Part shown: piece after piece, positions 24,010 to 28,997 of the stretch
Layout: each line of letters opens with the position of its first letter
Numbering within the stretch: position 1 is the first letter of the stretch
Virus record (IMG/VR): IMGVR_UViG_2872185964_000009
Source of the DNA: a virus
Taxonomy: Duplodnaviria; Heunggongvirae; Uroviricota; Caudoviricetes
Direction: 5' to 3' (one strand)
DNA: 40,340 bases
Notes under the pieces: generated by a model
Seen by the model: the letters and a program-made list of their open reading frames with translations, nothing else
What the model was told of the DNA's origin: nothing
The model's database searches: none
Translations under genes and position numbers: made by a program

Positions 24010-24284
24010 TTATTTCACTTCTTTAAAACCAGCGGCTTTCATCACCAGTTCCATTTGCGCCATAGTGATACCTTTTTTGGCATCTTCAGCAGAAACGTTG
24101 ATTCCTGAAATACCCTGCAGGGCTTTAAAATCCACTTTTTCCATATCGATAGTCACGTTTTCCTGCGCGTAGGTATCGGTATAGGTTAATTTTTCTTCAA
24201 CACCCGCGATGTTTTTGTATTTGGCGCTTAACGGCTCAAGTGTCTTGGCAGCGTCTTCTTTGGTGGTTGCACCAATAGAGGCAA
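24010..24284 (-). pseudogene. yehR: yehR 3' fragment (lipoprotein), 5' part removed at the IS1 boundary
   Basis: ..KYKNIAGVEEKLTYTDTYAQENVTIDMEKVDFKALQGISGINVSAEDAKKGITMAQMELVMKAAGFKEVK* on minus strand, running directly into the IS1 end at 24285. Confidence 0.7.
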
Positions 24285-24299
24285 GGTAATGACTCCAAC

Positions 24300-24677
24300 T
24301 TATTGATAGTGTTTTATGTTCAGATAATGCCCGATGACTTTGTCATGCAGCTCCACCGATTTTGAGAACGACAGCGACTTCCGTCCCAGCCGTGCCAGGT
24401 GCTGCCTCAGATTCAGGTTATGCCGCTCAATTCGCTGCGTATATCGCTTGCTGATTACGTGCAGCTTTCCCTTCAGGCGGGATTCATACAGTGGCCAGCC
24501 ATCCGTCATCCATATCACCACGTCAAAGGGTGACAGCAAGCTCATAAGACGCCCCAGCGTCGCCATAGTGCGTTCACCGAATACGTGCGCAACAACCGTC
24601 TTCCGGAGCCTGTCATACGCGTAAAACAGCCAGCGCTGGCGCGATTTAGCCCCGACGTATCCCCACTGTTCGTCCAT
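24300..24677 (-). CDS. insB: IS1 InsB reading frame
   Basis: 125-aa ORF. Confidence 0.95.
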
Positions 24678-24721
24678 TTCCGCGCAGACGATGACGTCAC
24701 TGCCCGGCTGTATGCGCGAGG

Positions 24722-24997
24722 TTACCGACTGCGGCCTGAGTTTTTTAAGTGACGTAAAATCGTGTTGAGGCTAACGCCCATAATGCGTGCAGTTGCCCGG
24801 CATCCAACGCCATTCATGGCCATATCAATAATTTTCTGGTGCGTACCGGGTTGAGAAGCGGTGTAAGTGAACTGCAGTTGCCATGTTTTACGGCAGTGAG
24901 AGCAGAGATAGCGCTGATGTCCGGCAGTGCTTTTGCCGTTACGCACCACCCCGTCAGTAGCTGAACAGGAGGGACAGCTGATAGAAACAGAAGCCAC
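24722..24997 (-). CDS. insA: IS1 InsA
   Basis: 91-aa ORF. Confidence 0.95.
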
Positions 24998-25129
24998 TGG
25001 AGCACCTCAAAAACACCATCATACACTAAATCAGTAAGTTGGCAGCATCACCAGAGTGAGGTAGCCTGAGTTTAACGGACACTCCTTCCTGAAATAGAAT
25101 GGCATCAGAAGGAGGGTAATGACTCCAAC

Positions 25130-25495
25130 TTATTGATAGTGTTTTATGTTCAGATAATGCCCGATGACTTTGTCATGCAGCTCCACCGATTTTGAGAACG
25201 ACAGCGACTTCCGTCCCAGCCGTGCCAGGTGCTGCCTCAGATTCAGGTTATGCCGCTCAATTCGCTGCGTATATCGCTTGCTGATTACGTGCAGCTTTCC
25301 CTTCAGGCGGGATTCATACAGTGGCCAGCCATCCGTCATCCATATCACCACGTCAAAGGGTGACAGCAAGCTCATAAGACGCCCCAGCGTCGCCATAGTG
25401 CGTTCACCGAATACGTGCGCAACAACCGTCTTCCGGAGCCTGTCATACGCGTAAAACAGCCAGCGCTGGCGCGATTTAGCCCCGACGTATCCCAC
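25130..25495 (-). pseudogene. insB: IS1 InsB reading frame with a 1-bp deletion near its 5' end
   Basis: ORF shortened to 121 aa. Confidence 0.85.
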
Positions 25496-25550
25496 TGTTC
25501 GTCCATTTCCGCGCAGACGATGACGTCACTGCCCGGCTGTATGCGCGAGG

Positions 25551-25826
25551 TTACCGACTGCGGCCTGAGTTTTTTAAGTGACGTAAAATCGTGTTGAGGC
25601 TAACGCCCATAATGCGTGCAGTTGCCCGGCATCCAACGCCATTCATGGCCATATCAATAATTTTCTGGTGCGTACCGGGTTGAGAAGCGGTGTAAGTGAA
25701 CTGCAGTTGCCATGTTTTACGGCAGTGAGAGCAGAGATAGCGCTGATGTCCGGCAGTGCTTTTGCCGTTACGCACCACCCCGTCAGTAGCTGAACAGGAG
25801 GGACAGCTGATAGAAACAGAAGCCAC
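25551..25826 (-). CDS. insA: IS1 InsA
   Basis: 91-aa ORF. Confidence 0.95.
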
Positions 25827-25896
25827 TGGAGCACCTCAAAAACACCATCATACACTAAATCAGTAAGTTGGCAGCATCACCCAGAAGGAGCTAATA

Positions 25897-26199: not shown

Positions 26200-26234
26200 T
26201 CGAACAATGGCGACAACAATTTCCCATTGAAGCG

Positions 26235-26698
26235 ATGTGTCAGGTATTTGGTGTATCCAGGAGCGGTTATTACAACTGGGTACAGCATGAACCCTCAGAC
26301 AGAAAACAAAGTGATGAGCGGCTAAAACTGGAGATTAAGGTGGCACATATCCGCACTCGCGAAACATATGGAACCCGGCGGCTCCAGACGGAGCTGGCAG
26401 AGAATGGCATCATCGTTGGTCGTGACCGACTGGCACGTCTTCGTAAGGAGCTAAGGCTACGCTGTAAGCAGAAACGCAAGTTCAGAGCGACTACGAACCC
26501 GAACCACAATCTGCCAGTTGCGCCAAATCTGCTGAACCAGACGTTCGCTCCTACAGCACCAAATCAGGTCTGGGTGGCGGACCTGACGTATGTTGCCACA
26601 CAGGAGGGATGGTTGTACCTCGCTGGCATCAAAGATGTTTATACGTGCGAAATTGTCGGCTACGCCATGGGAGAGCGCATGACAAAAGAGCTGACAGG
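26235..26698 (+). pseudogene. IS600 OrfB (DDE transposase) 5' portion, interrupted by IS2
   Basis: ..VWVADLTYVATQEGWLYLAGIKDVYTCEIVGYAMGERMTKELTG, then the IS2 terminus. Confidence 0.85.
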
Positions 26699-26709
26699 TG
26701 GATTTGCCC

Positions 26710-27615
26710 CTATATTTCCAGACATCTGTTATCACTTAACCCATTACAAGCCCGCTGCCGCAGATATTCCCGTGGCGAGCGATAACCCAGCGCACTATGC
26801 GGATGCCATTCGTTATAATGTTCGAACGCCTCTGCAAGGTTCTTTGCTGCCGTTAACCCGTCTGGTTTGGGCATGATACTGATGTAGTCACGCTTTATCG
26901 TTTTCACGAAGCTCTCTGCTATTCCGTTACTCTCCGGACTCCGCACCGCCGTGTTCTTCGGTTCAAGTCCCAACATCCGGGCGAACTGGCGTGTTTCATT
27001 AGCCCGGTAGCATGAACCATTATCCGTCAGCCACTCCACTGGAGACGACGGAAGATCGTTGCCGAAGCGGCGTTCCACCGCACCCAGCATGACGTCCTGT
27101 ACTGTTTCACTGTTGAAGCCGCCGGTAGTCACCGCCCAGTGCAGTGCCTCACGATAACAGCAGTCCAGCGCGAACGTGACACGCAGTCTCTCTCCGTTAT
27201 CACAGCAGAACTCGAACCCGTCAGAGCACCATCGCTGATTGCTTTCTTTCACGGCCACTCTGCCTGTATGTGCCCGTTTCGATGGCGGTACAGCAGGTTT
27301 TCGCTCAAGCAACAGCGCATTCTGGCGCATGATCCGGTAAACACGTTTGGCATTGATCGCAGGCATACCATCAAGTTCTGCCTGTCTGCGAAGCAGCGCC
27401 CATACCCGACGATAACCATACGTGGGCAGCTCTCCGATAACATGGTGTATACGGAGAAGCACATCCGTATCATCAGTGTGACGACTGCGGCGGCCATCCA
27501 TCCAGTCATCGGTTCGTCTGAGAATGACGTGCAACTGCGCACGCGACACCCGGAGACAACGGCTGACTAAGCTTACTCCCCATCCCCGGGCAATAAGGGC
27601 GCGTGCGCTATCCAC
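26710..27615 (-). CDS. insD: IS2 InsD (OrfB, DDE transposase)
   Basis: 301-aa [81 protein letters not shown].. Confidence 0.95.
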
Positions 27616-27938
27616 TTTTTTGCCCGTCCATATTCAACGGCTTCTTTGAGGAGTTCATTTTCCATCGTTTTCTTGCCGAGCAGGCGCTGGAGTTCTTTAA
27701 TCTGCTTCATGGCGGCAGCAAGTTCAGAGGCAGGAACAACCTGTTCTCCGGCGGCCACAGCAGTAAGACTTCCTTCCTGGTATTGCTTACGCCAGAGAAA
27801 TAACTGGCTGGCTGCTACACCATGTTGCCGGGCAACGAGGGAGACCGTCATCCCCGGTTCAAAGCTCTGCTGAACAATTGCGATCTTTTCCTGTGTGGTA
27901 CGCCGTCTGCGTTTCTCCGGCCCTAAGACATCAATCAT
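27573..27938 (-). CDS. insC: IS2 InsC (OrfA)
   Basis: [57 protein letters not shown].. Confidence 0.95.
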
Positions 27939-28029
27939 CTGTACTCCAATGACTAGTCTAAAAACTAGTATTAAGACTATCACTTATTTAAGTGATACTG
28001 GTTGTCTGGAGATTCAGGGGGCCAGTCTA

Positions 28030-28389
28030 ACAGGTAAAGCCCTGTTTATGGCGCTCAGGAGCCAGCGCCCACCTGCCGGGCTAATCCACCACTCTGATCG
28101 AGGTTCACAGTACTGCGCATACGATTACCGGGTCATACAGGAGCAGTCTGGTCTGAAAACATCAATGTCGCGTAAAGGTCACTGTTACGACAACGCTCCG
28201 ATGGAAAGCTTCTGGGGAACGCTGAAAAATGAGAGCCTGAGCCACTATCGTTTTAATAACCGGGATGAAGCCATCTCAGTAATACGGGAATACATTGAGA
28301 TTTTCTACAATCGTCAGCGTCGTCACTCTCGTCTGGGGAATATCTCCCCGGCAGCCTTCAGGGAAAAATATCATCAGATGGCTGCTTAA
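28030..28389 (+). pseudogene. IS600 OrfB 3' portion (resumes after IS2)
   Basis: KALFMALRSQRPPAGLIHHSDRGSQYCAYDYRVIQEQSGLKTSMSRKGHCYDNAPMESFWGTLKNE..; contiguous with 26235..26698 once IS2 and one ACAGG copy are removed. Confidence 0.85.
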
Positions 28390-28432
28390 AAAAAGAACAA
28401 ATGGTAGTGTCCGCTATTGCCAGTACACCTCA

Positions 28433-28997
28433 GAGTTCCAGAAACTCCAGAGCAATGCTGCATCAGATTGTGCACTCCCTGTCTGTTGATTACCCTGAAC
28501 TCGCATTTGTAACTCAGCAAAAGCCTGCTGCCAGTTTTCTGGATAAGAACGGTAATTGTTGGCGGGATCATATGCCCTGGTGTTATTCGCGATGAGCTGC
28601 CATATTTGACCATCTTTGTGCAGATAATTGATCTCTCTGGGGCGAGAGCAATGAGGAAAAGCAAATCGATTAATATCGTCAGTTAGCCGAATGACCGCAT
28701 CATCAGCCAGCCAGGGGCGTTGGTTTTTACTCTCAGGGGAAGTTTCAACTTCAGGAGTGGCTTTGGTAATGGGGGGATATGCACGTTTGCTGAAGCATTT
28801 TCCACATAGCCTTTTTTCGTTTTCTCTGCGATCAGCTTAAGCTCCGCTTTTGCCGCTGCCGCAGCATCCGCAAAACTTTTTATCTGGCTTTGCCCGTTAG
28901 TGCCGACTTTGCCCCAGTTGATATGCAGCTCGTTTCCCTGCTGCTCAACCGCCCAGAATTTATGTGATTTTTCGTCCTGATAGATAAAGTGTCTCAT
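28433..28997 (-). pseudogene. WGR-domain protein 5' fragment (molR/yehH-like), 3' part removed at the IS600 boundary
   Basis: MRHFIYQDEKSHKFWAVEQQGNELHINWGKVGTNGQSQIKSFADAAAAAKAELKLIAEKTKKGYVE is a WGR domain; lies downstream of metG as molR does in K-12. Confidence 0.4.

Follow-up and report, generated by a model that had tools for sequence, protein, structure and literature searches.

Positions 24010 to 28997 of a 40,340-nucleotide (nt) stretch of DNA (IMG/VR record IMGVR_UViG_2872185964_000009; the whole stretch is called the window below) hold a stack of nested insertion sequences (ISs) between remnants of yehR and of a molR-like gene. Within the stack, an IS600 carries one IS1 and one IS2, and another IS1 stands at the edge of yehR, where a block of chromosomal genes is missing. 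This arrangement very probably records transposition events that followed one another in a lineage of Shigella dysenteriae. An exact protein match to the truncated molR open reading frame (ORF) led to CP026872.1, and window positions 18683..38997 are 100% identical to the locus in that record. CP026872.1 is S. dysenteriae ATCC 9764, according to a supplementary table in Hawkey et al. 2020 (PMC7373316). The erosion of Shigella chromosomes by IS1, IS2, and IS600 can be seen here in a clean, datable case, and intermediates found in relatives fix part of the order of events.

Architecture of the stack and its flanks

We read the interval 23500..29500 and measured the ends of the elements by script. 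The parts of the stack and its flanking gene fragments are as follows.

24010..24284, minus strand: yehR 3' fragment, which keeps the stop codon and the final 275 of 462 nt; the promoter and the first 187 nt of the gene are gone
24285..25052, minus strand: IS1-A, 768 bp, InsA of 91 amino acids (aa) and a conceptual InsAB' of 232 aa; deletion junction
25053..25056, no strand: AGAG spacer, a native molR A followed by GAG, the left copy of the IS600 3-bp duplication
25057..25114, plus strand: IS600 left end, 58 bp, left inverted repeat TGAGGTAGCC...; positions 1-58 of the restored IS600
25115..25881, minus strand: IS1-B, 767 bp, inside the IS600 leader and oriented like IS1-A
25882..26698, plus strand: IS600 middle part, orfA at 25897..26199 (100 aa) and the 5' part of orfB
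26699..28029, minus strand: IS2, 1331 bp, TnpA of 121 aa and TnpB of 301 aa (26710..27615), inside IS600 orfB
28030..28432, plus strand: IS600 right part, comprising the 3' end of orfB and then the right inverted repeat, which finishes in ...CACCTCA
28433..28997, minus strand: 5' fragment (about 566 nt) of the molR-like WGR/DUF4132 gene, whose full length is 3801 nt; the fragment has a WGR domain (PF05406) and begins with the right GAG, 28433-28435

With its inserts, IS600 spans 25057..28432. A first-pass annotation, made from the letters alone, had described it as struck twice, by an IS1 with a 9-bp duplication and by an IS2 with duplication of ACAGG. Its coordinates and duplications match the boundaries that we measured: the 9-bp CAGAAGGAG lies at 25106-25114 and again at 25882-25890, and ACAGG lies at 26694-26698 and 28030-28034. 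That annotation also expected an element of about 1264 bp once both inserts were taken out. Removing IS1-B with one CAGAAGGAG, and IS2 with one ACAGG, left exactly 1264 bp with the ends TGAGG...CCTCA. The restored element aligned over 1264 of 1264 nt, in a single gapless piece at 99.8% identity, with copies annotated as "IS3-like element IS600 family transposase." It has the length, the TG...CA ends, the overlapping orfA and orfB, and the 3-bp duplication of an IS600. In a protein family scan, its OrfB matched NF033516 (IS3 family) with 332.8 bits. The OrfA product also matched NF033516, and this short protein gave the only match among the IS1, IS2, and IS3-family proteins scanned that was not above the curated cut-off.

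The 3-bp IS600 duplication is GAG. Its right copy is at 28433-28435, and the intact reference sequence, ...GTAA GAG TTCC..., has a single GAG. All four bases of the AGAG spacer match native molR in place; therefore, IS600 still sits in its original target. The end of IS1-A is thus joined to molR one base outside the GAG duplication. The IS1 at 24285..25052 had been said to abut IS600 without a target duplication. The missing duplication is borne out, because the 9-mers flanking IS1-A are unlike (TAGAGGCAA versus AGAGTGAGG), but the two elements do not touch, since AGAG at 25053-25056 intervenes. The other duplications are backed by empty sites: CAGAAGGAG is single in relatives, ACAGG is single in annotated IS600, and GAG is single in the intact locus. 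Therefore, these duplications are real and not chance repeats.

The inserted elements have the features of their types. InsAB' of IS1-A matched NF033558 with 246.6 bits (cut-off, 100), and a -1 frameshift at an A6C motif (position 307) joins insA to insB'. Both IS1-A and IS1-B end in imperfect terminal inverted repeats of about 23 bp (GGTGATGCTGCCAACTTACTGAT / GGTAATGACTCCAACTTATTGAT). IS1-B has the 9-bp duplication typical of IS1, with an empty site in relatives; IS1-A has none, as is expected of a copy at a deletion junction. IS2 is 1331 bp long, with terminal inverted repeats, the 5-bp duplication, and ORFs for both TnpA (NF006928, 276 bits; cut-off, 229) and TnpB (NF006918, 724 bits; cut-off, 597). 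Coding capacity is intact in IS1-A and in IS2.

The left end of IS1-B is 62 bp from IS1-A, and the two copies have the same orientation. They differ only in one C, absent from a C run in IS1-B (near 25490, equivalent to 24661 in IS1-A), which truncates its InsAB' to 151 aa. We considered the frameshifted InsB of IS1-B as a marker of the locus and rejected it, because this 121-aa allele recurs in unrelated contexts, in 34 blocks of our collection. Descent of IS1-B from IS1-A was likewise uninformative, since the sequence type of IS1-A is the common one in these genomes. Within the IS1-B target CAGAAGGAG is the AAGGAG that directly precedes the start codon of IS600 orfA. IS1-B splits the IS600 left end from orfA, and IS600 is thus disrupted twice, in the leader by IS1-B and in orfB by IS2.

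The flanks had been called a yehR 3' fragment and a molR-like 5' fragment, with the yehQ/yehP/yehM/yehL/yehK/yehI block missing relative to the K-12 order. Alignment with K-12 and with an intact reference locus, that of E. coli ECCTRSRTH03 (L001, with yehR at 1468..1929), agreed on both counts. In every complete E. coli genome, the counterpart of the left flank is btsR-yehS-yehR. This flank aligns with L001 1..1742, where it stops within yehR, and it also aligns with K-12 yehR; tblastn of the window with YehR matched residues 38-153. The right flank contains metG and the WGR/DUF4132 gene (the molR / yehF-yehH locus) and starts at L001 19439/19440. Compared with L001, 17,696 bp are missing between 1742 and 19439/19440. 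This interval holds the 5' 187 nt of yehR, then yehQ, yehP, yehM, yehL, yehK, and yehI, a second DUF4132 gene of 3033 nt, and some 3.2 kb from the molR-like gene. The gene order in K-12 is the same, with yehI-yehQ lying between the two flank points. At neither the DNA nor the protein level did these six yeh genes leave a trace at the locus or anywhere else in the 40-kb window. None of the missing yeh proteins matched a PADLOC defence model.

The molR fragment carries a frameshift at 28771, where a run of seven G is reduced to six. The six-G state is also found in some members of both clades described below and in a relative with an intact locus (L003), and it is absent in others; it is either a hypermutable site or a sequencing artefact. 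This frameshift, the IS600 GAG duplication, the AGAG spacer, the one-base-shorter IS1-B, and the larger extent of the missing interval are additions to the first-pass annotation.

Relatives and the order of insertion

The nesting had been read as IS600 first, followed by IS1 and IS2, and a search of other isolates for intermediate states had been proposed. Such intermediates exist. Seven other assemblies (GCA_007106565.1, GCA_002968185.1, GCA_002949955.1, GCA_002949175.1, GCA_002949535.1, GCA_000815735.1, and GCA_002949895.1) share every junction of the stack except those of IS1-B, and at the IS1-B site they have a single CAGAAGGAG. The common junctions are yehR/IS1-A, IS1/AGAG/IS600, both IS600/IS2 joints, and IS600/GAG/molR. 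Because removing both inserts restores a gapless IS600, and because these natural intermediates occur, IS1-B and IS2 must both have entered an IS600 that was already there, as the nesting had indicated. Because the seven relatives carry everything else around an empty IS1-B site, IS1-B is the newest insertion, later than IS2 and later than the deletion-associated IS1-A. Among the assemblies examined, we saw it only in ATCC 9764. We considered whether recombination between IS1-A and IS1-B had produced the state of the relatives, and rejected this because it would delete the 62 bp between the two copies, yet the relatives keep them.

A sister clade of three genomes (L009, L013, and L015, the last being S. 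dysenteriae 96-3162) has the identical yehR/IS1 junction at L001 1742, with the IS1 in the same orientation. This clade has no IS600, and its far IS1 end meets molR at L001 18688, where the deletion stops 751 bp before the endpoint seen in the window. Single-nucleotide polymorphisms (SNPs) in the flanks place the two groups as sister clades, with three derived alleles in common relative to E. coli-like loci. Since the junction is identical in both clades, the yehR/IS1 joint was inherited and the distal joint is clade specific. The flank SNPs do not separate one deletion later extended by 751 bp from two independent deletions, because each course requires two events. In GCA_012978065.1 (L003) the locus is intact and has no IS600.

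Among 5,426 complete E. coli genomes, none had the whole stack as a collinear locus and none had the IS600/molR junction; one 80% match to the stack consisted of six joined pieces in an IS-rich, plasmid-sized record.

Further nesting was observed at the same locus in relatives (L010/L030, CP026866.1; L009 and L015, CP026807.1 and CP026823.1; L034, CP026867.1). It comprises an IS3-family element of about 1.3 kb in IS2 in IS600, which makes a three-deep nest; a 91%-identical IS1 variant in the junction IS1, with positions 232-240 duplicated; and an IS66-family element of about 2.5 kb within the yehR remnant.

Origin of the deletion

We suggest the following history. An IS1 would have entered yehR in an ancestor common to the two sister clades. 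In the clade of the window, IS600 would then have entered the molR-like gene, duplicating GAG, and IS2 would have entered IS600 orfB, duplicating ACAGG and inactivating IS600. At its far end (starting GGTGATG, at 25052), the yehR IS1 would next have become attached to molR, a single base beyond the IS600 duplication, with loss of 17.7 kb, from the 5' part of yehR through most of the molR-like gene. Last, and only in ATCC 9764 among the assemblies examined, a second IS1 entered 58 bp inside the IS600 left end, duplicating CAGAAGGAG.

For the deletion itself, we lean toward intramolecular (replicative) transposition of IS1. The missing block had been called consistent with an IS1-mediated adjacent deletion. 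Beyond the absent duplication, the sister clade now adds support, with its identical yehR/IS1 junction and its molR joint 751 bp away. The yehR/IS1 joint is fixed at L001 1742, the distal joints fall at 18688 and 19439, and the retained IS1 has no duplication. A fixed IS1 end with nested endpoints fits an adjacent deletion anchored in IS1.

The same product could also have come from homologous recombination between two IS1 copies in direct repeat, which would leave a single hybrid IS1 without a duplication. We regard this as the less likely course, although one to be taken seriously. The first copy would have lain in yehR, and the second would have been separated from the IS600 duplication by a single base or, for the sister clade, placed at L001 18688. 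Near-identical IS1 copies are abundant, with five in the 40-kb window that differ by at most one base, and IS1 demonstrably lands in this region, as IS1-B lies only 62 bp away in the same orientation. Such recombination is moreover a recognised cause of absent duplications (PMC11708052; PMC7373316). However, it takes two steps in each clade, an extra insertion and then the recombination, against one step for transpositional deletion, and we favour the latter on this ground of parsimony. Nor did the assemblies examined include an intermediate with two IS1 copies. It appears very unlikely that an IS-mediated inversion or translocation carried the missing yehI-yehQ block to another place on the replicon. 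Although IS-mediated rearrangements are common in Shigella (PMC7373316), none of yehQ, yehP, yehM, yehL, yehK, and yehI can be traced in the window, native molR sequence lies on both sides of IS600, and the block is also gone from this locus in the sister clade, where the endpoint differs; an excised circle without a replication origin would, in addition, normally be lost. An assembly artefact, by mis-joining or collapse of repeated IS copies, is more improbable still. IS-rich regions are hard to assemble, and single-base homopolymer differences may be sequencing errors, but all junctions except those of IS1-B recur exactly in at least seven independent assemblies. For IS1-B, a mis-join would not create what is seen, a 9-bp site that is single copy in relatives and perfectly duplicated here.

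Several points weigh against the history that we propose. Recombination of the yehR IS1 with a second IS1 at the distal point would give a sequence identical to that left by transpositional deletion. The assemblies examined contained no double-IS1 intermediate that would mark the one route, and no simple ancestor with IS1 in yehR and yehQ intact. IS600 could equally have landed after the deletion, one base from an IS1 end already in place. That the deleted DNA was lost and not moved is something we infer from the 40-kb window. Finally, the 1-bp homopolymer differences, in the IS1-B C run and in the molR G run, may be long-read sequencing errors; they are suspect because the G-run state is scattered over both clades and the frameshifted InsB allele occurs in many unrelated contexts.

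Known parallels and the rest of the window

Adjacent deletion by IS1 through intramolecular replicative transposition has been known since the 1970s, when it was first reported from the gal region of E. coli. More recently, in the long-term evolution experiment with E. coli, the duplication-less ISs found beside large deletions were all explained by insertion, adjacent deletion, and later extension, and time series from that experiment show this multistep course (PMC11708052). The locus described here resembles these cases in that the junction IS is kept without a duplication, with one end fixed and the other at different nested endpoints in related lineages. It differs in that the events are reconstructed from natural isolates and that recombination of two IS1 copies gives the same product. 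IS1, IS2, and IS600 are among the five IS types that expanded in all Shigella species, and Shigella reference genomes show gene interruption, IS-linked deletion, and ISs inside ISs (PMC7373316). The same IS types form the stack in ATCC 9764, a strain included in the genome table of that study. Nested copies are undetectable by short-read IS mapping (PMC7373316). In the searchable literature we found no description of this locus or of its order of events. In kind, the locus is an ordinary, well-described case of Shigella genome decay, with known elements and known mechanisms, and it has little significance beyond book-keeping. It does illustrate that duplication-less IS copies mark deletion junctions and that nested IS copies vary between closely related strains.

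The yehL-yehQ block is at least 80% present in 5203 of 5426 complete E. coli genomes (95.9%), and 71 genomes have no match to it at all. Several unrelated E. coli strains (for example 2018-18.25PC, S1-INA-02-A, CRE1540, and P470; L017-L020) resemble the window: yehQ-yehL are missing, and an IS1 of like orientation borders yehR, between it and yehK. Unlike the window, they have other breakpoints and shorter deletions, keep yehK and yehI, and have no IS600 or IS2. Their IS1-associated loss of yehL-yehQ is independent. One may speculate that the yehR-proximal IS1 is a long-lived deletion source that repeatedly removes parts of the yeh cluster in sister Shigella clades, but we think this improbable. 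On that reading, these losses and the wide presence of the block in E. coli, taken together, could point either to a true IS1 hot spot or to selection in some niches against this uncharacterised cluster of MoxR-ATPase, VWA, SWIM, and DUF4132-WGR genes. Recurrent IS1-linked loss is a possible starting point for asking what the cluster does.

In E. coli FDAARGOS_944 (L021; NZ_CP065613.1 844500-869500), whose flanks are among the closest to those of the window, IS4 and ISEc60 lie in the two WGR/DUF4132 genes by metG. Therefore, the WGR/DUF4132 genes are IS targets in other lineages too.

Elsewhere in the window, two IS1 copies have normal 9-bp duplications (15996..16762 and 19777..20544). A fifth copy, IS1-e (34499..35266), has none (AACAACTGG versus TTAGCGATG) and stands where L003, an intact relative, has about 3.7 kb of yehA-yehC fimbrial genes; this is a second IS1-associated deletion in the window. 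The pyruvate-sensing two-component genes at 21054..23452 are disrupted: btsS is split into ORFs of 104 and 434 aa, and a strain-specific 1-bp deletion shortens btsR to 172 aa. Several close relatives have both genes intact, and the disruptions could be real pseudogenes or homopolymer sequencing errors. To the left of btsS, window positions 1..19200 hold not the K-12 neighbour mlrA but a decayed lambdoid prophage tail region, with a split tape-measure gene, a fragment of tip attachment protein J, tail fibre and collar genes, and a DinI-like gene. The same region contains an IS66-family transposase gene and, at 1..309, part of a 90%-identical IS1 variant.

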